The notes beneath the pieces are model-generated. The model did no database searches. It was not told where the DNA came from and saw only the letters and a list, made by a program, of their open reading frames with translations. Source: an uncultured Bacteroidota bacterium (GTDB taxonomy: Bacteria > Bacteroidota > Bacteroidia > AKYH767-A > OLB10). From it: a DNA stretch of 64,000 nt. The stretch covers positions 5,685-69,684 of the forward strand of contig CAWFDA010000024.1 of assembly GCA_963814475.1 (NCBI GenBank), written 5' to 3'. The translations under genes were made by a program, and so were the position numbers. Below are positions 1,490-14,315 of the stretch, piece after piece (position 1 is the stretch's first letter; each line of letters begins with the position of its first letter).

Positions 1490-1583
1490 CCACTACCGCT
1501 AACATTTAGCCGAGTAGACGAAAAAGCCCTAAGCAAAAGCCCCGTGTGTGTGCGGGGCTTTTTTGTTCTATTCGGTGTTGACT
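1490..1583 (+). other. attC-like site 1 (putative): R''-like CCACTACCGCTAAC, long imperfect hairpin, R'-like GTTGAC
   Basis: 1490-1503 is the reverse complement (13/14) of the block start GTTAGCGGTAATGG at 1006-1019. The outer stem ccgagtagacgaaaaagc / gcttttttgttctattcgg encloses the GC hairpin 1539-1558. Confidence 0.5.
1535..1566 (+). terminator. Rho-independent terminator-like hairpin (GCCCCG-N8-CGGGGC plus T-tract)
   Basis: The sequence is aaaaGCCCCGtgtgtgtgCGGGGCtttttt, directly downstream of ORF 1060..1479. The same hairpin is the tip of attC-like site 1. Confidence 0.6.
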
Positions 1584-1821
1584 GAAACCTGACTGCTAGG
1601 GTACAAAGTAGACCGGAAATTATTTTATCAATTTACTATAAGGAGATTATTTTTGATCGATTGGTGTGTGAATGTTTTCAAAATAGTAGTCGATGGAACA
1701 TTTTAAATGGGTTCATGTGTTATAAAGTGGTTGGAGAAGATGCATAATTCGTAACATGGCACTACCAATTCACACGACAACGTGTCGTTCAAAAAAATAT
1801 ATATGCTACACCGTTATCGTT

Positions 1822-2991
1822 TTAGTCGGATGGGATTTTGCCGGATTGCAGGAGCACGAGACGTCCTTTTTTACAACCGGGACAGCGCATAGGATCACGC
1901 CCGGTACGTTCGATCATTCGTTGGAGGAAAGGTATTTTAGTGAGAGGAGTATGTTGGGGTACTTGCATTTTTTGCAGAATGCGGTTCACACGAATTTTGC
2001 GTTGGTTGTTGCCTAGGTACCCATAGTGCCGTATTTTAACAAAACGAAAGGGTAGAAGATGCTGCTCGAACCGACGAATGAACTCAGGAGCATTCAAGGT
2101 CATCACTTTCTGTTTTGATTTGTCAGCATAATCCTTGTAAGTGAACGTTACATCACCCACATCATCCACCTCTTTGATTCGGTGATTGCTGATGGCTACT
2201 TTGTGGGTATACCTTCCCAGATACTCCATCACCTGGAGCGGTCCACCAAAAGGTTGTTTAGCATGTACGATCCATTTTGTTGCAAATAAGTTGTTTAGTA
2301 AACCTTTCCAGTTGAGCTCTTGTTCATGAGTAAGTTTTAGCTTTTGTTTTTCACGCAGTTTGCGAAGTTGTTTAAGGAAGTACGCTTTGTAGACTTTCTC
2401 CATGGCTTGTATAGGAAACAATACCCCATACTTTGCTTTTTTGGCCGCGATCCACTGATCATCCGCCGTAGCGCCACCACCACTTACAATACAATGCAGG
2501 TGCGGATGAAAACTGAGCGTTTGTCCCCAGGTATGCAGCACGGCGATGATTCCGGGTTTAGCGCCCATATATTTTTCATCATCTGCAAAACGAAGTAACG
2601 TATAAGAGGCAGCATCAAAGAGTAAATCGAACAATTGCTTTCGGTTGCCCATCACCAGAGGGTTTAACTCATGAGGCAGTGTAAATACCACATGGTAATA
2701 TTTACAGGGCAAGAGTTCTTTGAGCCGGGACTCGATCCACTCTTCTTTTTTGGAGTTGCCGCAATTGGGACAATGTCGGTTGCGACAACTGTGATATATT
2801 ACTTGCGTGTATTCGCACCCGTTAGCATTGCATGCGGTGTGGTGGTAACCCATCGCAGCAGTACGACACTGTTCAATTTTACTCAACGTGCGCACGGCGC
2901 CTACTCCAACATGAGCAGGCCACGACGGATACTTTTGCAATACGAGTTGAACAGAGGCGTGCGGGCGACCTACTTGACAGGCGGCTGACAT
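1822..2991 (-). CDS. IS91-family (Y2, rolling-circle type) transposase with N-terminal zinc-binding domain
   Basis: Cys cluster CRNRHCPNC, HTWGQTLSFHPHLHCIV (HUH-like), and YLGRYTHKVAISNHRI (Y2 motif region). Overlaps the upstream recombinase gene by 22 nt. Confidence 0.8.
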   Translation of the reverse strand: MSAACQVGRPHASVQLVLQKYPSWPAHVGVGAVRTLSKIEQCRTAAMGYHHTACNANGCEYTQVIYHSCRNRHCPNCGNSKKEEWIESRLKELLPCKYYHVVFTLPHELNPLVMGNRKQLFDLLFDAASYTLLRFADDEKYMGAKPGIIAVLHTWGQTLSFHPHLHCIVSGGGATADDQWIAAKKAKYGVLFPIQAMEKVYKAYFLKQLRKLREKQKLKLTHEQELNWKGLLNNLFATKWIVHAKQPFGGPLQVMEYLGRYTHKVAISNHRIKEVDDVGDVTFTYKDYADKSKQKVMTLNAPEFIRRFEQHLLPFRFVKIRHYGYLGNNQRKIRVNRILQKMQVPQHTPLTKIPFLQRMIERTGRDPMRCPGCKKGRLVLLQSGKIPSD

Positions 2992-3839
2992 AGCGAGCTC
3001 TGATTAACAGGAATATACTCCAGCGGATTTTTCTTGTGCAAGGCATCCAGCGGACTGACCAGTCCATATCGCTTTTTACTTTGCAGATGCAGGTAAATCA
3101 TGGTGGTTTCGATCTTGCTATGACCTAGTAGCTCCTTGATGGTGTGGATATCGGAACCGTTGTCGAGCATGTGGGTGGCAAAGGAATGGCGGAGGGTATG
3201 CGTATTGTATCCCAGATGAGCCAGATTGGCTTTGACCATGCATTGATGTAAGGCGTGTTGAATGCTGCGCACATGCATGGGTTGGGAAGGAGTTTGTCCT
3301 TCAAAAAGAAAGGTAACAGGCCGATGTTTCAGAAAATAACTGCGCAGGGTATTTAAACACGAATGCGACAAAATGGTAAAGCGATCTTTGCGACCTTTTC
3401 CCTGAATGATTTTAATGCGCATGTTTTTGGAATCGATGTTAACGAGCATTAACTTACTGCATTCCTCTAGTCGAATACCACTGGAATAGAACAACTCCAC
3501 CAGCGCGCGTTGCTTAATCGATTCACAGGCACCTAGTAGCACTAACATCTCCTCCTCACTCATTACATTGGGCAGTTTAAACTCCTTTTTAGGATAGAGT
3601 TTAGAGGGTAATTCGTAAGGTTTTTTTAAGATCTGTTTGTAAAAGAAGGATAAGCTTTGGGCCACACTGCGGCACTTGGCATGACTTGCGTTGAAGGTCT
3701 TTTTGAGGTACAAAATATACGCTTCAATCTGCTGCTGAGTGATCGAACCCGGGTCACAATCAGGATAATACTCGAACAGAAATCGGGCTTCCCTCACATA
3801 ATTACGAATACTCATCACCGAGTAGTTCCCGATGGACAT
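2970..3839 (-). CDS. tyrosine recombinase (Xer/IntI-related phage-integrase family) coupled to the IS91-like transposase
   Basis: Catalytic signature GIRLEE, GKGRKDR, HTLRHSFATHML, LLGHSKIETTMIYLH. The C-terminal SPLDAL resembles integron integrases, but the IntI-specific insertion is absent. Confidence 0.85.
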   Translation of the reverse strand: MSIGNYSVMSIRNYVREARFLFEYYPDCDPGSITQQQIEAYILYLKKTFNASHAKCRSVAQSLSFFYKQILKKPYELPSKLYPKKEFKLPNVMSEEEMLVLLGACESIKQRALVELFYSSGIRLEECSKLMLVNIDSKNMRIKIIQGKGRKDRFTILSHSCLNTLRSYFLKHRPVTFLFEGQTPSQPMHVRSIQHALHQCMVKANLAHLGYNTHTLRHSFATHMLDNGSDIHTIKELLGHSKIETTMIYLHLQSKKRYGLVSPLDALHKKNPLEYIPVNQSSLCQPPVK

Positions 3840-3959
3840 GGTGCCTGCAAGTTGCTCGAGGTATCCCTGAGCAGCCTCATTTAATTTTTTTTTAGTTTCA
3901 TGTTGTTATTTGTTTATATTTGTTGAAACATAAACAAAAATTCCCGAACCGAAGGGAGG

Positions 3960-4063
3960 GTTTCAGTTCAACAGGCAGTTGGACGCCAGGGCCGGCTGGT
4001 GCTATTTGTTTTTTTATTAAATTGGCAGCCGGCCCCGTCGCCAACTGCCAAACCGTTATGCGC
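3960..4063 (+). other. attC-like site 2 (putative)
   Basis: GTTTCAGTTCAAC (3960-3972) is the reverse complement, with one extra T, of the block start GTTGACTGAAAC (1577-1588). GC-rich imperfect stem 3974-4002 / 4024-4049, spacer aaacc, then GTTATGCGC (4055-4063). Confidence 0.55.
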
Positions 4064-4075
4064 AATAATTAATTT

Positions 4076-4774
4076 ATGAATGATAATGTACCTATTCGAG
4101 ATTTTATCTTCCCTTTAATTAAAGCCCGGACTCTCGATGAAGAGTTTGAATATGAAGAATTAATTGGAACTGGGTTCTTAATTGGAAATCGCGGATTTGC
4201 AATCACTGCAGCCCATGTGGTTGAGCAATTAATGGAAGGAGATAGAAATCTGGAAAATATTCAAGCCATTTTCGCTGATGACACCAAATGGTTTGGATAT
4301 TCAATTGAATGTTATGAAAAACATGAAACGGAAGATGTAGCTATTATCAAATTAAAGAACTTTAAAAGAGATTCATTTCTTAAAGTATTGTGCGACAAAC
4401 AACATGCTGCAATTGAATATCATTGTTGGGGGTATCCTCGTGATGTGGCGAAAGAACTCCAAAAGCTTGATGAAAATGCTATGGAACGACCTGATTTAAT
4501 ATTTACACAAGGGTATATCAGAAGAAGAATTAGTGGTCCATTATATCCAACGATATTGTTTAGAGGTGTCGAATTTTACGAATTAAGTGAAACTGTAGGT
4601 CAAGGCAATTCCGGTGGTCCAATAATTTTAAAAAGTCCACCATATGGTAAAGTAATAGGATTATATATTGGTGAAAAAGAACAAGGGAATATTGGTTATG
4701 CTGTAAGAGCAGAAGCATTTGCAAATTGGTCTCCAAAAATTCTTGAAAAGACTATTATTGAAGAGTGTGGATAG
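4076..4774 (+). CDS. cytoplasmic trypsin-like (S1/Trypsin_2-type) serine protease
   Basis: No signal peptide. Catalytic triad contexts are TAAHV (His), EDVAIIKL (Asp) and GQGNSGGPI (Ser). Confidence 0.75.
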   Translation: MNDNVPIRDFIFPLIKARTLDEEFEYEELIGTGFLIGNRGFAITAAHVVEQLMEGDRNLENIQAIFADDTKWFGYSIECYEKHETEDVAIIKLKNFKRDSFLKVLCDKQHAAIEYHCWGYPRDVAKELQKLDENAMERPDLIFTQGYIRRRISGPLYPTILFRGVEFYELSETVGQGNSGGPIILKSPPYGKVIGLYIGEKEQGNIGYAVRAEAFANWSPKILEKTIIEECG

Positions 4775-4931
4775 CTACTCGTAAAACGTCAGCTCAATAG
4801 CTGTTTGTAAATAGGCAATATCCTACCTTTTGCGCTACTTGCCTAATATTCATCGCATTAGAAAATAATTCATATTAGCGAATTACATGCAAATAGTTTG
4901 CTAATTTTTCATTTATTTTAAAAATAGAGCT

Positions 4932-4939
4932 TATATTTG
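4932..4939 (+). promoter_or_regulatory. Bacteroidota -7-type promoter motif TAnnTTTG (TATATTTG)
   Basis: Lies 29 nt upstream of the ATG at 4968. The surrounding AT-rich spacer contains repeated ttgcaaat/atttgca elements. Confidence 0.4.
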
Positions 4940-4967
4940 CAGAATAATTGCAAATAACCAATACTAA

Positions 4968-6311
4968 ATGATTGTCCAATTCTCAGTTAAAAATTATAGG
5001 TCGTTTAAAGACAACTCCATTCTAAATCTTGTTGCATCAAATTACGACAAGAATACTCGTGAAGATTTGAACATATTTAACGTCAGCAAGTATAAATTGC
5101 GACTATTGAAAAGTGCAGTTATATATGGTGCTAACGCAAGTGGAAAAAGTAAATATCTGGAAGCATTAATGTTTATGAGACAATTTGCTTTGAATTCTTC
5201 TAAGAATACGCAACAAGGTGAACCTATTGCAACAGAACCTTTTCGTTTGAGTTCTTCAACTTTAAAAGAGGGTAGTGAATTTGAAATCATATTTCTCTTG
5301 AAGAGTGAATTATATAGATATGGATTTGAAGTAAGTAATAAAAAGGTTAATGCTGAATGGCTCTATCAAAAAAGTAAATCAAAAGAAATAGAATTGTTTT
5401 ATCGAGAGTTTCAAGAAATTAAAACAAATGATATAAAAATTCCTAAAGCTAAAACATTGATTAAAGAGCAGCTGATAAGAGATAATGCATTATTTCTATC
5501 CGTACTTGCACAGTTTAATGACAAACAAGCTGAATTAATATTGGAATGGTTTCAAAATCTAAAAACTATCTCTGGTTTAAAAGAAGAAGGGTATCTAAAT
5601 GATACTATGAAAATGTCACAAGATAATAAACATAAAGAAAGAATTTTATCATTTTTAAAGAATGCAGATATCGGGATAGAAGATTTCAAATTAAAAAAGT
5701 ATGCATTTAATAATTTCGAAGAAGAAATTGAAAAAATGGAAGGGAATGAAAAACTAGATAATGAATTGAAAAGTGCATTGAAAGGCTTAAACTCATACTT
5801 TATGAGAACTTCGAAAGAAGAGAATAGAGAAGTATTTACCGATGTTATTATGTATCATAAACAATTTAATTCAAAAGGTAAATCAATTGGAAATGTTGAG
5901 TTTTCTTTAAAAGAGGATGAATCTTCCGGTACACGGAAGTATTTTGCAATGATTGGACAAATTATACAGGTAATTGAAACAGGTAGTGTTTTAGTAGTAG
6001 ATGAATTAGATTCAAAATTACATCCAAATCTAGTTTGCAGAATTGTTTCACTTTTCAATTCAAAAAAAAGTAATCCACATAATGCGCAAATAATTTTTAA
6101 TACACATGACACCAACCTCTTAAGTTCAGGATTATTTAGAAGAGATCAAATTTGGTTTACAAAACGGGACAACTTTGGGGCATCAATATTATATTCATTA
6201 GCTGATTTCAAAACTGATGAAGTCCGAAAAAATGAAGCTTTTGAAGAAAACTACATAAGGGGAAAGTATGGTGCCGTTCCTTTTCTTTCAGAATTTGATT
6301 ATTTTATTTAA
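4968..6311 (+). CDS. AAA_21 / ABC-type ATPase (AbiLi / AriA / OLD-ATPase-like)
   Basis: N-terminal FSVKNYRSFKD, Walker A GANASGKS, Walker B VLVVDELDSKLHP, H-loop IIFNTHD, and the RRDQIWFTKRD motif. A ~200 aa charged insertion lies between Walker A and Walker B. Confidence 0.8.
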   Translation: MIVQFSVKNYRSFKDNSILNLVASNYDKNTREDLNIFNVSKYKLRLLKSAVIYGANASGKSKYLEALMFMRQFALNSSKNTQQGEPIATEPFRLSSSTLKEGSEFEIIFLLKSELYRYGFEVSNKKVNAEWLYQKSKSKEIELFYREFQEIKTNDIKIPKAKTLIKEQLIRDNALFLSVLAQFNDKQAELILEWFQNLKTISGLKEEGYLNDTMKMSQDNKHKERILSFLKNADIGIEDFKLKKYAFNNFEEEIEKMEGNEKLDNELKSALKGLNSYFMRTSKEENREVFTDVIMYHKQFNSKGKSIGNVEFSLKEDESSGTRKYFAMIGQIIQVIETGSVLVVDELDSKLHPNLVCRIVSLFNSKKSNPHNAQIIFNTHDTNLLSSGLFRRDQIWFTKRDNFGASILYSLADFKTDEVRKNEAFEENYIRGKYGAVPFLSEFDYFI

Positions 6312-6457
6312 CGATTTCCTGAACTGCATATGAAAGAAAAGGAATTAAAGAAGAGCAAAAGGGAAATAAGAATCGAAATCGTTTTTCAGAAACGAAGTTT
6401 AAGCGTCAAACAAATTCTTCACTTGAAAGGACGCCACCCAGTCTTCAAGAAAATCCA

Positions 6458-7078
6458 TTGTATTTGATCTACTGTGAAGGCAAAAATACTGAACCTTCAT
6501 ATTTTAAGAAATTTAAACTCTCTACAGTCACAATCGAATCATTTGGTGAAGGGAAAAATACACTAACACTTGTGGAAAGGGCTAAACAGTTAGCAGATGA
6601 AGCTGAGAAGCAAAATAGGGAGTATGATAAAATCTGGTGTGTGTTTGATGCAGACCCTAAACCAGATAACCCTAATCAATTAAAAAATTTTAATGCAGCA
6701 ATTCAGAAGGCTCAAAAATACGGATTTGGAGTAGCATATTCTAATCAAGCATTTGAATACTGGTTACTATTGCATTTTGAAGACCATCAGGGTGGTGCAA
6801 TGAATAGGAATTTATATGGTGATAAGCTTAATTCTTATTTGCATAAACTTGGTATTGTTTACGAACATAATGGGAATAAAAATGTTAATACAGACTTATT
6901 TGAAATTCTAATGGAAATTGTAAAAACAGATAGAAATGGAAATAATTTTTCACGATCAGATATCGCGTGTATAAGAGCGGAAAAAATATTTAACCGGCTA
7001 GATCATACTAATCCTGGAAAAGAAGAATCTTCAACTTCAGTTTTTCAACTTGTTAAGGAGATTAAGAGCTTCATTTGA
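6458..7078 (+). CDS. RloB-like (Toprim-type) protein, AbiLii-like
   Basis: LIYCEGKNTEPSYF (Toprim Glu), VFDADP (DxD) and YSNQAFEYWLLLHF (RloB signature). The frame is open upstream to 6323, and an out-of-frame ATG sits at 6330. The true start is therefore uncertain: TTG at 6458, or a frameshifted N-terminus. Confidence 0.75.
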   Translation: MYLIYCEGKNTEPSYFKKFKLSTVTIESFGEGKNTLTLVERAKQLADEAEKQNREYDKIWCVFDADPKPDNPNQLKNFNAAIQKAQKYGFGVAYSNQAFEYWLLLHFEDHQGGAMNRNLYGDKLNSYLHKLGIVYEHNGNKNVNTDLFEILMEIVKTDRNGNNFSRSDIACIRAEKIFNRLDHTNPGKEESSTSVFQLVKEIKSFI

Positions 7079-7091
7079 ATACAGTTCGGAC

Positions 7092-7226
7092 CTACTGCGC
7101 ATAACAGCCGGTCTTGCGCAAGGCCGGCCTGAAGTTTTTTACTTTTATTAAATTGGTCCACCGAAACGGGAAAAACCTCCCGCTTCTGTGGACAAGGTAG
7201 GCCAGCCCTGCGCAAACCGGCGGAAC
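7092..7226 (+). other. attC-like site 3, 5' portion (R''-like GCGCATAAC plus nested hairpins), interrupted downstream by an intron and an IS
   Basis: GCGCATAAC (7097-7105) is the exact reverse complement of GTTATGCGC (4055-4063). Outer stem 7106-7129 / 7200-7220; inner stem about 7157-7171 / 7179-7193. The loop shares ttattaaattgg with site 2. Confidence 0.5.
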
Positions 7227-9196
7227 GTGTGTGTCCTGAATCAGGACAATCCAAATATTGAATTGAAAAGAATGCTGTACAAAAGATGGAAGACAGACTT
7301 TAGAGATGGGAAAACGAAAGCGCGGAGTCCAAGCGAACTGAATGGCTGGAATACCTATATCAAAATCTGAACGGCCTTCCAAAGACGACTTTCAGGAGTA
7401 GTCTTCAAACCACCTTATGCTGCATGGATGGAAACATCCTTTGTGGTGAACGATAAGGAAAAACGGGAGCATAAGACTCTTGTAGTTGTGTGATACGGAG
7501 CTGAAGAAATTAAATCAGCTGAATGAAGCCTCGTAAGCGGTTAGACAGTGCTGAAAGTAGACGGTTACGTTTGCGGCTACGACAAACAAAAAGTGTAAGG
7601 GAGACCTGATTTCTGTTTGCATAGCACTCGGGGTAAAGCAGGCAGGACTGTATCACAGGCTTTTGTACGGAACAGGAGAAGTCGATACTGTACTGGTAAC
7701 CAAGAATACGGGAAACAGTCATACAAGGATAGTATGAGATATCGGTGGCAGACTAAGCTCGTAGTAGTGATGAAGTTTCTGAAAGGAAATGGAGCGAAGG
7801 GCTTAGCTTGTTTAGTATTTCAATAATTTACAACCAGCAGCAATGGGATGATTGACTATTATGAAATAAAATCACAACCAATTACCAGAGTGATGGTATG
7901 GCAGGCATACAAGAAAGTACGCGCCAACAAAGGAAGTCGGGGCATAGACGATATGACTTGGCAATGGTTGGATAAAGAACCAGACGTAACCGAACTATAT
8001 CAAACTATGGAACCGTCTAACTTCTGGCAGTTATTTTCCAAAGCCAGTAAAAGAAGTACCCATTCCAAAGAAGAAAGGCGGGAGAGCGTAAATTAGGCAT
8101 TCCAACACTAATAGACCGTATCGCTCAACAAGTAGTCAGAAACACATTTAGAACGAATAGTAGAACCACGTTTTCACAACAGTTCGTTTGGCTATCGACC
8201 ATCGAAGAAATTGTCATCAGGCGGTAGCGCAATCATGCAAGAATTGCTTTCAACCATGACTTTGCTATTGACCTAGACATCAAAGGATTCTTCGACACAA
8301 TTGACCATGAGATTGCTGCATGAAAGCGGTAGCGTTTTACTGTCAAGGACAAATGGGTTTTGCTATACGTCGAACGGTGGCTCAAAGCAGGAATCGTGCA
8401 ACAGGACGGCAAGTATATAGACCGACTAACAGGCACTCCGCAGGGAGGTGTAATTAGTCCGCTACTGGCAAATATCTTTTTGCATGTAAGTTTTGACAAA
8501 TGGATGGATAAAAACCATCCTGAAAAGCCATTTGAACGTTATGCAGATGATGTGTGGTGCATTGCAAAACGGAGAAACAAGCGATATTTGTTTTAAAACA
8601 AATTGACGCAACGACTTCAGTAATTGCAAACTTAGGACTACATCCTGATCAAAACCAGAATTGTGAATCTTGCGAGGAATAGCGGAAAAGAAATACCCGA
8701 AAGAGTTATGATTTTCTGGGATTCACGATCCGACCACACTGGTGTAAGATAAATGGAGACAGCTGATGCTTATGCCAGGCATTTTCATAAGCGGGAAATC
8801 GGAGACTGCCGTACTTGGACAAATTGAGGGCAAATGCACATTCACAAGCGCCGAGTACCTATTGAAGAATTAGCGCAAAGATTTAGACCTATTCTTCAGG
8901 GAATAATGAATTACTACGGCAAGTTTTCAACAGGGCATCATCGGTACATCTGGAATCAGACTAAATGCAAGATTGCTTAAATGGGTAAAATGGGAGAAGG
9001 GGCTATACAAAATGGCATCTTTACGATGGCTAAGGAAAAAGTATAAGGAATCCCTTTACTTTTTCCACACTGGAAATTGGTACATCCATAAAGTATTCAT
9101 ACTTTGGTGATTCAAACAAGAAGAGCCGTGTGAATCGAGAGGTTCAAGCACGGTTCTGTGGGAACGTGAGGGTGAAATTCCCTCGCGTGACCCGAT
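7227..9196 (+). mobile_element. bacterial group II intron, class C-like, with decayed intron-encoded protein
   Basis: Starts GTGTG just 3' of a hairpin. Canonical 34-nt domain V lies at 9123-9156 (GAGCCGTGTGAATC-GAGA-GGTTCAAGCACGGTTC: GNRA loop, 2-nt bulge). A domain VI-like hairpin follows and the element ends ...CCCGAT. An RT ORF lies in domain IV. The 1970 nt length fits IIC introns. Boundaries are accurate to within a few nt. Confidence 0.8.
7848..9110 (+). pseudogene. group II intron reverse transcriptase/maturase, multiply frameshifted
   Basis: Fragments lie in three frames: QAYKKVRANKGSRGIDDMT (7848..), LGIPTLIDRIAQQVV (from 8092), TPQGGVISPLLANIFLH ... YADD (8360..8596), and a maturase-like tail ending at 9110. 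Confidence 0.8.
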
Positions 9197-9201
9197 CAGG
9201 T

Positions 9202-10944
9202 TGTGAAAAAACTACCTTTTCCTACACTTTCTTTAAAACGCATTCGAAAAATTATTTTACTGAAGCATTATAACGTTGTAAGCGCATGCGAAAATCAGGC
9301 TGCCATTTTATTCCAATAAATAGTTGTGCGACAAATCGCTTTTAAATGCCTTGTAAATCCCACAAAAAGCCACTCCTTGCGGTATTTTGGCTTCCAGTTT
9401 ATGAGTTGTTGCATTAAATCTTCAAAATCGAGTATGTTTAAGGTTCGCTTGATGTTGTAACTTAACATAATCAAACTCCATTCACCATTTACTTTTTCAA
9501 GTCCTATAAGGTTGGTATAATAGTAGCCCCACTTTCGTTTTATTGTTCCAAATATATGTTCGTTTATTTCCTGTCGTTTGCGATATAGCTTTGCGTTCCT
9601 TTTGTAATTTTTATTATTCTGTTCTACTGCTGCTGCATATTGACTACGTTCTATTTCTCGTCCACCTTTTTGTCGGCCGGTGCATAAATGTTTCACCGGA
9701 CAATCTTTGCATTTTGGAGTGCGGTACTTTCTTGATATTGGTAGGAAATTTTATCCTCTCGTTTTTTCGTATGCCAGGTGCCAAAAGTTCTAGAGTTTGT
9801 CCGGCAGGACATGTATAGGTGTCGTGTTGTTCTATTGTATTGAAACTGGTCTACTAAGGTATGCTTTGGTGGTTCCAAAGGGATTACTGTTTACTAGATT
9901 CCTGTTGCGCAACAATAGTTTTTAAATCATTATTCTGACAAGTTTCAATTTCTCGAGCATTGTGATAACCCTTATCGGCGAGCAATGTAAAAGATTGTTT
10001 GGAAAGATTATTTTTAGCTTCCAGTGCAAAGGATGATAACGCATTGCGATCGTTCCGATTAATGGTGTGAGTGGCAACAATTAGATTATACTTATCATCA
10101 ACAGCAGCTTGGGTATTGTAACAAACCTCCACCACTTGACCTTGCACTAACAAACTTCTACTATCAGGATCAGTGGTACTAATTTGTGGTTCTCCACTTG
10201 CAATTAACTCCTCATGTAGGTGTTCGTACTTAATTTGATTTTTATTTAGCCGATCAAGTTTTGATTCAATTTCTGATATAGTACCGGCATCCTCCTCCAT
10301 ATCGAGTTCATCCATTTGATTAAGATACTCGACTGTTTTTTCTTCAATATACTTGAAATGCCTCTCTAACTTTTTAGCTGTATAATTATTTTTCTTACCG
10401 TTATGTGCTCTTGATTTTGTTCCATCAATGGCAATAGTTTTTCCTCCAATTAAATTGGCCTCACTTAAGAACGAAACAAACAACTTAAACATATTCCGGA
10501 GGGCTTTCCCATTTACTTTTCTAAAATCGGCTATGCTGTGATAATTAGGAACCAGTTTTCCGCACAGCCATTGCATCTCAATATTCCGGTGGCACTCTTT
10601 CTCAAGACGACGAGAGGAGCGTATGCCGTTCTGATAACCATACAAATAAATCTTTAAAAATAGTTTGGGCTCAAAAGAGGGTCGGCCCTCCGTCTGAATC
10701 TCTTTAACAATAAATCCCAACTTTTCTAATTTTAATTTATTTACAAAGGCATCCAAGAAACGAACGGGATCGTGAGCCGAAATTTGCTCTTCCAGTGAGC
10801 CAAAGGAGAGCTGGTGTCGGTCGTAAGGGAGAATATGTTGCATTTGTTATTTGTTTGACTCAAATTTACACAGTATTCTGCCACTTTTTTTAAATAATTA
10901 TTAGAATTAATGAACAATCAATTGAGGAAATTAGTATTTTCACA
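9202..10944 (-). mobile_element. IS1182-family insertion sequence with imperfect terminal inverted repeats
   Basis: The ends are TGTGAAAAAACTACC (9202-) and the reverse complement TGTGAAAATACTAAT (-10944). Inserted a few nt after the intron 3' end and immediately before CTGACGTTAGCGGC. Confidence 0.75.
9295..10843 (-). pseudogene. IS1182-family transposase split over three frames
   Basis: The pieces are ORFs 9884..10843 (N-terminus), 9693..9878 (middle) and 9295..9696 (C-terminus). They are colinear with the intact-looking copy at 1..939. Confidence 0.75.
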
Positions 10945-11067: not shown

Positions 11068-12456
11068 ATGGTTAAAGTAAAGATGTATCGATTACTTTGT
11101 ATCTTAACTAATCTAGTTATGATCAATACTTCAGGATATTGTCAGAATCAATATAATGTTTGGTATTTCGGAGATCACGCAGGCGTTGATTTTAATTCCG
11201 GTATTCCAGTGGCTTTAAATAATAGTGCAATGTTTGCGTTCGAAGGCTGTGCAGGCATATGTGATTCTTCAGGAAATATTATGTTTTATACGAATGGAGG
11301 AGATCTCAATTCGTATGCGGGAGGAGTATGGAACCGCAATAATGTTTTAATGCCAAATGGTGATTTAAATGGATTCAGTGGTTGCCAAAGTTCGGATCAA
11401 TCATCCTTGATTATTCCCTTTCCAGGAACAACTAATCTCTTTTATTTATTCACACTTGATTGTTCCGAAGATGCTTTTGGCGGTGGGTTTCGATACTCGA
11501 TAATTGACATGAACCTTGATGCCGGCAATGGAGACATTACTATTAAGGATACATTGGTAGAAAATGGCATGAGCGAATCAATGTGTGGAGTAGTACATTC
11601 AAATGGCAATGATTTTTGGGTATTAGTTCACAGTAATAGCACAAACGAATTCAAAGCCTTCTTGGTCAACTCGTCAGGCATTCAGCCACCCGTTTCTTCT
11701 TTAATTGGGCCAGGGTCATGTGGTATTTGTCAATTAAAAGCCAACGCATATGGTACACAAATTTGCTTAGCAGCTTGTTCTGGTTCCTTCCTGTTTAATT
11801 TTAATAACTCGACTGGAGTTGTTTCGAATCAGGTAAACTTAAATGTAAATGGTGGTTTTGGAAGTTCATTTTCTCCGAATGGAAACATCTTATATCTCTT
11901 AGATGGAACCGCATTTCCTTTTAAGTTGGTTCAATTTGATTTAACCGCTTCAAACATATCTTCTACATACTTGGTTATTAGTTCACTCACTACCTATGGC
12001 GAAGGGCTGATGCTGGCACATGATTGCAAAATTTATATGCCAGCGAGTGGAACTCATTACCTTCATGTGATAAGCGATCCGGATGTTTTAGGAATTGGCT
12101 GTAGCTTTACTACTAATGCCGTTTATTTGGGGAATTCATTTAGCAAATACGAACCACCTAATAATATTGATGGGTTATTTGCATCAACCTGTTTAATAAA
12201 TGGCTACCAGAATCAATATTCGCAATCATTTACTGTTTATCCAAACCCTGCTCACAATTTTATTTACATTCATAGTAATACAAATAATAATTTGAAAGTT
12301 AAAATTTCTGATATAAGCGGACAAATATTAAGTAGTGGTATCTATAATAATGCTCAGCTAATAAAAATCAACATAAATAATTTTGAATCAGGTATCTATT
12401 TTTTGATAATTGTTGAAGACCAAATTGTTTATACCCGAAAATTATTTATCGAATAA
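11068..12456 (+). CDS. T9SS type-A C-terminal sorting domain protein (secreted, function unknown)
   Basis: Signal peptide present. The C-terminus reads FTVYPNPAHNFIYI ... GIYFLIIVED ... KLFIE, typical of the Por_Secre_tail domain. Confidence 0.75.
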   Translation: MVKVKMYRLLCILTNLVMINTSGYCQNQYNVWYFGDHAGVDFNSGIPVALNNSAMFAFEGCAGICDSSGNIMFYTNGGDLNSYAGGVWNRNNVLMPNGDLNGFSGCQSSDQSSLIIPFPGTTNLFYLFTLDCSEDAFGGGFRYSIIDMNLDAGNGDITIKDTLVENGMSESMCGVVHSNGNDFWVLVHSNSTNEFKAFLVNSSGIQPPVSSLIGPGSCGICQLKANAYGTQICLAACSGSFLFNFNNSTGVVSNQVNLNVNGGFGSSFSPNGNILYLLDGTAFPFKLVQFDLTASNISSTYLVISSLTTYGEGLMLAHDCKIYMPASGTHYLHVISDPDVLGIGCSFTTNAVYLGNSFSKYEPPNNIDGLFASTCLINGYQNQYSQSFTVYPNPAHNFIYIHSNTNNNLKVKISDISGQILSSGIYNNAQLIKININNFESGIYFLIIVEDQIVYTRKLFIE

Positions 12457-12579: not shown

Positions 12580-12800
12580 ACATGCCGCTAACATAAAAAT
12601 TAATAGCAACAATTCTTTGAAGGGTAGTTTCCGTTCTTTAAGTTTGTGCAAGTAATAAGCGTCCTGCGTTTTGCAAAAAGCTTGCGCCGGATCGTTGCGG
12701 ATTGTTGGAGATTTTAATTGGCGCAATCTTTTTGCTGAGAGAGTTCTGCTATTTAATCCCTTCAAATTATTACTGCTTTAATTCCTTGTGCGTTATGGGC
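12580..12800 (+). other. attC-like site 4 (putative, unusually long at ~220 bp)
   Basis: Begins with R''-like GCCGCTAAC (12584-12592). Has an outer stem gcaacaattctttgaaggg / cccttcaaattattactgc and an inner stem gcaaaaagcttgcgcc / ggcgcaatctttttgc. Ends with GTTATGGGC (12792-12800). Confidence 0.4.
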
Positions 12801-12870: not shown

Positions 12871-13482
12871 ATGAAAATCCTTTTGTTAAGCACCCTGATT
12901 TTATTGATGGGGAAATTATATGGCCAAAACCATGAGTTGGGAATCGAACTGGGCGCAGGGCAAACTATTATTGATAGGCATTCAACTTTTTTTATTCCTC
13001 CTTTACTTCAGGAAGAAGACAAATTCCGAAGGATAGGTGTTAACTATACTTATACCCCCGACAGTGCAGGATTTAGTTTGAAATCAGGAGTAATGTTTGA
13101 TCAGAGGAATTCACATGGTACCGTTTTTGATTACCTCCGTTTACCCGTTGGAATTGAATTTCATCCCGGAAATAAAATACAATTAATTCTTGGCCTCGGT
13201 ATTTACGGTAGTGTCTTATTATCCATAACAGATCGTACCACATACTACAATTATAATCCAGATGAATTTACTGCGTTTCAGATAGGAGGCAGTTATAGTG
13301 GAGGAATTGGGTTTCAACTGTCAAAAATGATAAACGTATCTGCTCAATATCAAAAAAATTTCGATATTTATGCGAATGTATGAAGAAGATAGACACTCCC
13401 CTGGTGGAATACCATATTCGTTTAATATCCGTGGATTTGAAGGATTTTTAAAAATTGGGGTTAAATGCAAAATCTTTAATTA
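12871..13482 (+). pseudogene. small outer-membrane beta-barrel-like protein, apparent frameshift near 13375
   Basis: ORF 12871..13383 has a signal peptide and alternating beta-strand patterns. A shifted frame continues with ...GFEGFLKIGVKCKIFN to 13482, which looks like a barrel C-terminus. Confidence 0.45.
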
Positions 13483-13685
13483 GCCAGTACCTAATCACTT
13501 GGAGAGAAATCATGATTTTATTTGATAAAATTTTTATCTCTAGGGACTAAACGTTCAATTGAACCATTCAATATTGATTCTTATATTTCTAATTCTAAAT
13601 CAGAATTAAAGGCATATTGGACATACACTGAATGAAATCATACTTAGAACCTGATATCCGAAGAATTTTACTGCCACTTACAAAC

Positions 13686-13759
13686 TTGTTTACAACAGGT
13701 GGGCATGTTTCTTTTTAATTATTATCTTTGGTATGCCCGCCCTGCGGCAATGGCGAACC
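13686..13759 (+). other. attC-like site 5, 5' portion (R''-like TTGTTTACAAC plus hairpin)
   Basis: 13686-13696 can pair with the block start GTTATGGGCAA (12792-12802) by 7 Watson-Crick and 3 G-T pairs. Hairpin aggtgggcat (13697-13706) / atgcccgccct (13733-13743). Confidence 0.35.
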
Positions 13760-14239
13760 GTGGAGTGTCTTGAATCACCTTCGTTTTATTGAAGGTGAAT
13801 GCTGTGTAAAACATGCCTGCCTGCAGCAATCAGGGAAGACTTTAAGAGGAGATAGAACGAAAACTCAGCCGAGCGAACTGAGCAAAGAATCACCATCAAC
13901 AGGCGAAAGAAATGAACTTCCGCTGACGCTTGTCAAAGCCTGTCCCGACGAACGTCGGGAAAGAGTTAGCAAACCACCTTAAAGTGCCTTGAAAGGAAAC
14001 CTTCTTTGTGCTGAACGTTAAGGAAAAACGAGAACAGCGATTCTTGTAGGTGATTATAGTCGAGCTGAATAAATTGAATCTCCTATTAAGCCTCGTAAGC
14101 GGAATAGACGATGTAGAAAACACTCTCTCACGTTTAGAGTGCAAAAAAAATGTGGAGGACAACCTGCCTGCTAGCCAAACGGCTAGTTCGGCAGGCAGGT
14201 GTGGGAAAGTAGGGGTGAAATTCCCCTGCGTGACCCGAT
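13760..14239 (+). mobile_element. internally deleted, ORF-less derivative of the group II intron at 7227-9196
   Basis: Colinear homology to 7204-7646 (for example gaacgNtaaggaaaaacg, gagctgaa, gaagcctcgtaagcgg, GCAGGCAGG). It then joins directly to the domain VI-like end (tgtgggaa..gtgaaattccc..gcgtgacccgat). It lacks the IEP and the canonical domain V. Confidence 0.7.
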
Positions 14240-14315
14240 TAGGCGTCATTGTAGAGCAACACCTTACAAACAGACACTTTTGGAAAAATATTACAAAACT
14301 AAAAAAAGTAACACA

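Follow-up and report, generated by a model that had tools for sequence, protein, structure and literature searches.

The stretch analysed here (the window, 64,000 nucleotides of contig CAWFDA010000024.1 from an uncultured Bacteroidota bacterium) carries, close to its beginning, three open reading frames (ORFs) on the + strand, at 4076-4774, 4968-6311 and 6458-7078, which encode a serine protease, an ABC-type ATPase and an RloB-type Toprim protein and which lie between two hairpin sites resembling integron attC sites. A T9SS sorting domain encoded at 11068-12456 and a GC content of ~33% mark the host as a member of Bacteroidota. In an original prediction, made from the letters of the sequence, these genes had been proposed to form a three-component anti-phage cassette. 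The positions given there for the three ORFs hold, and coordinates, Pfam matches and readable motifs agree that the ORFs and the motifs ascribed to them are real. We consider it likely, nevertheless, that the block represents two independent modules, an AbiL pair and an unrelated serine protease, which came to share one cassette-like unit through the loss of a site. The features relevant to this interpretation are the following:

3966-4061, + strand: attC-like site A, composed of GTTCAAC, an imperfect 25-bp stem with a T-rich loop, and then AAACC-GTTATGC
4076-4774, + strand: stand-alone, cytoplasmic S1/PA-clan serine protease of 232 aa, with the triad H47/D87/S179 and the motif GYIRRR
4775-4801, + strand: putative remnant, the 3' end of a lost attC-like site with a degenerate R' box (GTCAGCTCAATAGC), the presumed ancestral 5' boundary of a two-gene AbiL cassette
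4932-4954, + strand: conserved, predicted AbiL promoter/operator block TATATTTGCAGAATAATTGCAAA, combining a TAnnTTTG Bacteroidota -7 motif with the palindrome TTTGCA..TGCAAA
4968-6311, + strand: AbiLi, an ABC-type ATPase of the AAA_15/21 family, assigned by PADLOC, Pfam and motifs
6321-7078, + strand: AbiLii/RloB Toprim nuclease gene, with the ancestral ATG at 6321; the longest in-frame ORF runs from a TTG, 6458-7078, and encodes 206 aa
7097-7226, + strand: 5' part of attC-like site B, with the R'' box GCGCATAAC and a long imperfect hairpin ending in ..CCGGCGGAAC
7227-9196, + strand: group II intron (GTGTG...GAT) with a broken reverse transcriptase (RT) frame, inserted in site B between its stem and its R' box
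9197-9212, + strand: 3' end of site B, CAG-GTTGTGAAAAAAC, with the R' box GTTGTGA at 9200-9206

The ATPase and RloB genes constitute an AbiL pair, in agreement with the architecture suggested originally. The ATPase matches the PADLOC AbiLi model (PDLC02335) at 4.3e-97 and Pfam AAA_21 at 8.8e-35, its reading frame is intact, and the Walker A (GANASGKS), Walker B (VLVVDELD) and H-loop (NTHD) motifs are readable in the translation. RloB, which matches PADLOC AbiLii (PDLC02337) at 1.3e-25 and the Pfam RloB profile over its full length (3.9e-46, positions 1-195 of 195), displays the Toprim body motifs EGKNTE, FDAD and SNQAFEYWLLLHF. It is located directly 3' of AbiLi on the same strand, and the same gene order was found in seven related loci, the closest of which, by ATPase identity, are L023 (83%), L024 and L026 (both 74%) and L028 (69%); the remaining three are viral contigs with 40-52% identity, carrying the same two genes. 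The original prediction had also pointed to a resemblance with PARIS and OLD, and the pair is indeed related to both yet distinct from them. With PARIS (AriA/AriB), the likely mechanistic analogue, it shares an ABC ATPase sensor and a separate Toprim nuclease, although the nuclease here is RloB (PF13707) rather than DUF4435/AriB. The match of the ATPase to the AriA model (2.3e-31) was counted as generic, and no match to AriB was found, the RloB protein matching solely AbiLii in PADLOC and solely RloB in Pfam. In OLD and in Gabija GajA, ATPase and Toprim reside in one polypeptide, whereas here they are encoded by separate genes (stop at 6311, next ancestral start at 6321). A two-gene operon in which an AAA_15/21 ABC ATPase precedes an RloB-type Toprim protein is the arrangement of AbiL from the Lactococcus plasmid pND861 and of Campylobacter RloA/RloB, from which the present locus differs in its Bacteroidota host, in the attC-like hairpin sites around the pair, in an RloB start that is out of frame and in the protease gene fused upstream. 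The long charged insertion of the ATPase, which had been singled out as a special trait, is a standard feature of this very large family, because its more than 7,800 homologues at E<1e-40 are all ~440-460 aa long. A weak match of the ATPase to NsnB brought up Menshen (NsnABC) as a candidate, which was dropped since NsnA and NsnC are ParB-DUF262 and nuclease proteins.

The protease matches Pfam Trypsin (2.8e-10) and Trypsin_2 (1.8e-9), its N-terminus is not hydrophobic and carries no signal peptide, and 35 homologues have H47, D87 and S179 without exception, as they do the family-specific motif GYIRRR. An AlphaFold model built from the alignment of these 35 homologues (pLDDT 91.7) shows the double beta-barrel fold and matches the protease domains of DegS, DegP and HtrA (TM ~0.6, E ~1e-9). 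Pfam matches, invariant residues and model concur in confirming a signal-peptide-less S1/Trypsin_2-type protease with a His/Asp/Ser triad. The HtrA/DegS protease domains (S1C), its best structural matches, share with it the chymotrypsin fold and the triad, but the protease described here has neither a PDZ domain nor a signal peptide, is only 15-20% identical to them and has the invariant GYIRRR motif of its own. Foldseek searches against viral structures returned generic chymotrypsin-fold matches only, PHROGs yielded nothing specific to the protease, and none of the curated defence models in PADLOC matches it as a whole protein. In PADLOC it comes closest to the protease domains in RT-Protease_XI, LmuA and Avs1b, with similarities at a generic Trypsin_2 level (1e-12 to 1e-4).

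The protease family is small, comprising 88 homologues in a word-index search and 172 representatives at E<=1e-30 in an exhaustive profile search, and its members are nearly all single-domain proteins of 225-260 aa without fusions. A search for distant loci with a 12-sequence alignment detected few true family loci, of which 2 were in genomes, 13 in metagenomes and 0 in viral contigs; Oscillospiraceae loci, with ~30% identity and a syntenic context of their own, were judged not to be members and were left out of the neighbour analysis. The genomic contexts of the homologues are diverse. One lies in a HEPN_Apea/TIR_2/AbiE island, between TIR_2/HEPN_Apea and AbiE (L045 1333-6090), one inside a prophage- or satellite-like element of Methylobacterium (L049 2675-12741), and one in a mobile region of Balneola with IS110 and phage-like genes, near Bub-type genes (BubE/ThiF; L001 4516-12714). 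Others have as neighbours AbiH, a resolvase or the C-terminal domain of a restriction enzyme of Type ISP; next to further copies are an HNH nuclease, a subtilase together with an AAA+ ATPase, or a Dam methylase. The sub-lineage P0067, on more than 20 contigs, is found in one constant, core-like setting, with a sigma-70 gene on one side and an RDD-domain gene on the other, and some copies adjoin the housekeeping genes UvrB, MnmE or RlmL. In the Balneola locus we also observed a GTTAGGC box 14 nt before the protease start codon and a copy of GTTATGCGC ~230 nt upstream.

The association between protease and AbiL was evaluated in a non-redundant sample of 18 protease loci and 7 AbiL loci, with AbiLi/RloB relatives sought by tblastn. 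None of the 18 protease loci carries a relative of AbiLi or RloB, and an all-against-all comparison of their neighbours revealed no conserved partner. Conversely, the protease is absent from all seven AbiL loci (L023, L024, L026, L028 and the three viral contigs), where the pair stands alone. Within this sample, protease and ATPase-RloB pairs never co-occur in other genomes, which speaks against the three-component system that the original prediction had put forward, as do the degenerate cassette boundary and the conserved promoter block of AbiL that lie between the protease gene and AbiLi.

These boundaries can be read in some detail. The block had been described as delimited by exact inverted 9-mers, and the pair is both exact and unique: GTTATGCGC is present in the 64 kb only at 4055-4063 (+) and 7097-7105 (-), where ~0.29 occurrences would be expected by chance and where two or more were obtained in 6 of 100 shuffles. 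The two copies coincide with the R' and R'' boxes of attC-like sites, that at 4055-4063 being the R' box of site A, which opens the composite cassette; less secure is the integron connection itself, as there is no integron integrase and the neighbouring recombinase belongs to an IS91-family unit. Folded as DNA, site A reaches -28 kcal/mol (z -4.4 against shuffles) and site B, with its intron removed, -37 kcal/mol (z -5.3). Both sites are thereby far more stable than shuffled sequences (z about -4.3 to -5.3), and they share orientation and a common loop motif. A scan for AAC..stem..GTT patterns at a strict threshold recovered site A as its best match, together with 1501-1579 and 12590-12794, and recovered none in shuffles; the same scan misses the L023 sites and every intron-split site, performs no better than on shuffles at a lax threshold, and cannot be used to claim that protease loci elsewhere are without such sites. 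No Rfam family matches the hairpins.

The comparison with relatives is more informative. In L023 the AbiL unit has such sites on both sides, the upstream one ending in GAAAC followed by GTTATGCGTAATAGCC, the downstream one beginning with ACGCATAACAG and ending in GTCAG followed by GTTGTGAAAAAACTC; the 3' end of site B is identical to the end of this site downstream of RloB, GTCAGGTTGTGAAAAAACTC. L024 has GTTAGGAGTAATAGCC upstream, at the same place as the remnant in the window, and CCACTAACAG downstream of AbiL. The R' and R'' boxes covary, being GTTATGCGC/GCGCATAAC in the window, GTTATGCGT/ACGCATAAC in L023 and GTTAG../..CTAAC in L024, and the start of each cassette is complementary to the R'' box of its own downstream site (GTTAT/ATAAC versus GTTAG/CTAAC across relatives). 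The downstream hairpin travels with AbiL, homologous boxes being present 3' of RloB in L023 and L024, and the upstream hairpins are unrelated. In the relatives the AbiL pair sits between unrelated neighbours, with homology stopping at the boxes. Judged from boxes and predicted folds, the covariation and the AbiL-linked downstream hairpin correspond to the way integron-type cassettes are organised, and other genomes also have the AbiL pair as a candidate two-gene cassette whose boxes covary. That the unit ends are perfectly complementary over 9 nt can be attributed to a shared R' consensus of the lineage, related copies of which are GTTATGGGC at 12791 and the GTTATGCGC upstream of the Balneola protease.

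The 27 nt that follow the protease stop codon directly (4775-4801) read CTACTCGTAAAACGTCAGCTCAATAGC and align with the site end and cassette start of L023, CTAGCCGCGAAAC followed by GTTATGCGTAATAGC, with a score reached by 6 of 2000 shuffles (p ~0.003). Homology to L023 then runs on through the leader to the promoter block. In this degenerate AbiL 5' boundary, GTT has become GTC, and the site expected 3' of the protease gene is gone. Because the 5' boundary that belongs to AbiL can still be recognised between the protease and AbiLi, a fusion of two cassettes by site loss is indicated. Further downstream, the sequence TATATTTGCnnAATAAnTGCAAA is nearly invariant in four loci, ~15-30 nt upstream of AbiLi (window 4932-4954, L023 ~1197-1220, L024 ~4968-4990 and L028 ~4963-4985), while the rest of the leader is only ~66% identical. 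The TAnnTTTG promoter motif previously assigned to the ATPase (TATATTTG, 4932-4939) is part of this conserved block, and to that extent the assignment was right; the motif as such is no commoner in the window than chance would have it (113 observed versus 103 expected). The AbiL pair, downstream of the protease gene, is apparently driven by this conserved predicted promoter of its own, and the short palindrome in the block could be an operator. A second TATATTTG motif was noticed at 3915-3922 on the + strand, between the recombinase start and site A; with the protease ATG ~155 nt further downstream, transcription from this motif could read through into the protease gene.

Given these data, the present unit of 3.17 kb is most likely two cassettes joined by the loss of one site, as far as its sequence organisation indicates. 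Module 1 would be AbiL (4968-7078) and module 2 the stand-alone S1-fold protease (4076-4774), both formerly separate cassettes in an array of attC-like hairpin sites of a Bacteroidota genome. Deletion of most of the intervening site would have left the two modules with site A (R' GTTATGCGC) at one end and site B (R'' GCGCATAAC) at the other, and at a later stage a group II intron would have split site B. The composite unit is probably no longer mobile.

The RloB gene of the window appears altered with respect to its relatives. In these, RloB has 244-252 aa, begins with MKM(L/Q)NK.. and starts within ~10-20 nt of the ATPase stop or overlaps it. The window retains an ATG at this ancestral position (6321, the ATPase stop being at 6311), with the Toprim body in another frame. 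That frame is open back to 6323, and its first start codon is the TTG at 6458. Compared with L024, the window has 7 nt less between the ATG and the conserved CAAAAGG, corresponding to a net 1-nt frameshift in the A-rich first codons. The RloB start formerly placed at 6458 is therefore not the ancestral one, since relatives begin ~10 nt after the ATPase stop, which corresponds to the ATG at 6321. The ORF of 206 aa from the TTG still holds the entire Pfam RloB domain. The RloB proteins of the relatives have a conserved, basic N-terminal extension of ~45 aa. As the ancestral RloB start is out of frame, this AbiL copy may be impaired, or may yield only an N-terminally truncated nuclease from the TTG at 6458. 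A split RloB was also seen in the related locus L026/L027.

AbiL is described in the literature as a two-component system in which an ABC-ATPase is paired with a TOPRIM protein, placed beside PARIS, and it has been proposed to act in a PARIS-like way (PMC13064643, PMC11464382). By analogy with PARIS, the ATPase oligomer (AbiLi) would keep the nuclease inactive and sense a phage product, and the RloB nuclease, once released or activated, would cut host or phage nucleic acid, leading to abortive infection. It is in this sense that we infer an abortive-infection-type defence for the AbiL pair of the window, under ATPase control of RloB. The protease would be an autonomous module, possibly with a narrow specificity.

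A true three-component variant of AbiL, in which the protease cleaves the basic N-terminal extension of RloB, or the ATPase, and so unleashes the nuclease, would be one alternative. The three genes are adjacent, co-oriented and enclosed by one pair of site boxes, the relatives' RloB has the conserved basic extension that could serve as a target, and the best PADLOC matches of the protease are to domains that activate a partner nuclease in the modules of trypsin-like proteases and MBL-fold pro-nucleases of Hachiman, AVAST, Lamassu and DRT systems. In those modules the core defence enzyme carries the protease as a fused domain, which invariably occurs together with, and activates, an MBL-fold nuclease encoded upstream (PMC12799240). 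The trypsin fold beside a nuclease-containing defence system is common to both cases, but the protease here is a single-domain protein, only site A and the divergent recombinase lie upstream of it, with no gene for an MBL-fold nuclease, and the PADLOC similarities do not exceed the generic level given above. Considering in addition that none of the 18 protease loci has AbiL and none of the 7 AbiL loci has the protease, and that a degenerate cassette boundary and a conserved AbiL promoter separate the genes, we regard such a system as highly improbable. Just as little credence, or slightly less, is given to the variant that the fusion of the cassettes has itself created a new working combination, with the protease clipping the RloB extension or the ATPase to release the nuclease. 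What the protease does instead is harder to say, and two answers appear about equally possible, neither being held more than tentatively. That it is a bare cytoplasmic protease domain, from a family met in defence and mobile settings, hints at an accessory function of its own, either in single-gene defence or toxin-like. It may equally be unrelated to phage defence, an accessory proteostasis or regulatory protease, acting for example on a sigma factor or a membrane protein, that was carried as a cassette by chance. The fixed sigma-70/RDD context of P0067, the copies beside UvrB, MnmE or RlmL and the lack of a curated defence model matching the whole protein fit the latter, whereas the many copies beside TIR_2/HEPN_Apea-AbiE, AbiH, Type ISP, HNH, Dam methylase and the AAA+ ATPase with subtilase, and those in the Methylobacterium element and near the Balneola Bub-type genes, fit it poorly.

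The nature of the hairpins is the other matter in which an alternative has to be weighed. They might not be integron-type at all and instead be terminator- or REP-like palindromes, or ends of IS91-family elements, in which case the block would be a juxtaposition within a defence island, perhaps mobilised by IS91-type rolling-circle read-through, and the 9-mers would be incidental. The window has no integron integrase, its recombinase stays below the cut-off, is devoid of the IntI-specific insertion and has a gene overlapping that of an IS91 Y2 transposase, and the hairpin at 1497-1589 travels with the IS91 unit in another genome. Group IIC introns, moreover, typically insert after any terminator-like hairpin, both introns of the window point the same way as the genes, which those of the known IIC-attC lineage do not, Bacteroidetes rarely have integrons, and Rfam has no match. 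Against this, every site is framed by AAC/GTT boxes, the start of the cassette is complementary to its own R'' box, with which it covaries across three relatives, the AbiL pair stands among unrelated neighbours with homology ending at the boxes, and both introns are placed exactly between stem and R' box. We therefore consider the non-integron explanation unlikely. The interpretation as two fused cassettes has weak points of its own: the alignment of the remnant is short (28 columns), the sites can be read nearly as well on one strand as on the other, the cassette part has to do without an integron integrase, and the co-occurrence sample is small (18 + 7 loci), so that rare three-gene variants may exist elsewhere. 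The frameshift in RloB could be a real, inactivating mutation or a homopolymer or assembly error in the A-rich run, the latter also counting against our interpretation, and the mechanism of AbiL, given as unknown in the literature cited above, does the same for the proposed mode of action.

The surroundings of the block are consistent with a region in decay, and further features of it are:

16-939 and 9295-10843: fragments of DDE transposases (DDE_Tnp_1/DDE_Tnp_1_6, DUF772)
1497-3972, minus strand: IS91-family unit, with a Y2 transposase (1822-2991) overlapping an IntI/Xer-like tyrosine recombinase (2970-3839)
~13761-14245: second group II intron, without an ORF, in the same relative position after another attC-like hairpin

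The fragment at 9295-10843, which falls into two ORFs, breaks up the unit that starts after site B. The intron at 7227-9196 is recognised by Rfam RF01999 at 7369-7486 and RF00029 at 9121-9196 (domains 1-4 and V/VI) and retains an RVT_1 fragment. Like the second intron, it lies between the stem and the GTT/R' box, co-oriented with the neighbouring genes, in contrast to the described IIC-attC introns, which are oriented opposite to adjacent genes (PMC3001079). Further attC-like sites were seen at 12590-12794, after the gene of the T9SS-sorted protein (11068-12456), and at 13680-13760, after an OMP-like gene (12871-13383); the former has CGTTATGGGCAATAA as its end, which is similar to the R' box at 4055. 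Taken with A and B, these sites look like a short decaying cassette array.

No integron integrase is encoded in the 64-kb window. Its sole tyrosine recombinase (2970-3839, minus strand) matches TIGR02249 in two stretches, with profile positions ~180-250 missing, lacks the IntI-specific insertion and reaches a score of 168 against a cut-off of 265. The IS91 unit to which it belongs has cassette-like ends, starting with GTTGAACTGAAACC and ending with GGTTTCAGTCAAC, followed by its own conserved hairpin at 1497-1589, and it abuts site A. The same recombinase-transposase pair, with GTTGAACTGAAACC and GGTTTCAGTCAAC as terminal repeats and the hairpin, was found in L056 (1-2522; integrase 81% identical) beside an unrelated NACHT gene. 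Because L056 keeps the unit with the same hairpin next to an unrelated gene, the hairpin at 1497-1589 is assigned to the IS91 unit, and its candidacy as the attC of a preceding cassette was rejected. Homologues of the recombinase are mostly found on contigs of 1-4 kb, as expected of a multicopy element, and an exact look-up of the IS91 transposase of the window gave no match. The IS91-recombinase unit might be a self-mobilising, hairpin-targeting element.

The region shares with integron cassettes, fused cassettes and attC-site clusters that have no integrase (CALIN) the G/TT-type R' and ..AAC R'' boxes around imperfect hairpins, the complementarity between a cassette start and its own R'', the insertion of mobile elements in sites and the joining of two cassettes after site loss. 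Defence cassettes in integrons are documented, and here it is AbiL that lies between attC-like sites. The region differs from integrons in that it has no IntI, in the orientation of its introns and in belonging to a phylum in which integrons are reported to be rare (PMC9024848), and its sites are attC-like by boxes and fold. It would accordingly be CALIN-like at best, and decaying, rather than an integron.

The AbiL part is an already-known kind of system and adds little to the catalogue of defence systems. What the locus adds is that AbiL recurs in Bacteroidota, a phylum in which integrons are considered rare, as what appears to be a self-promoted two-gene cassette between attC-like hairpins, and that the block is a good illustration of two cassettes probably joined when a site was lost, which is one route to multi-gene units. 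If the protease did act on AbiL, the principle by which a protease activates a pro-nuclease would reach Toprim/RloB nucleases, and integron-like arrays would assemble multi-gene defence systems from single cassettes. The small, uncharacterised family of ~240-aa cytoplasmic S1-fold proteases, which stand alone and are often encoded within defence islands or mobile elements, makes a sensible candidate single-gene defence or toxin.

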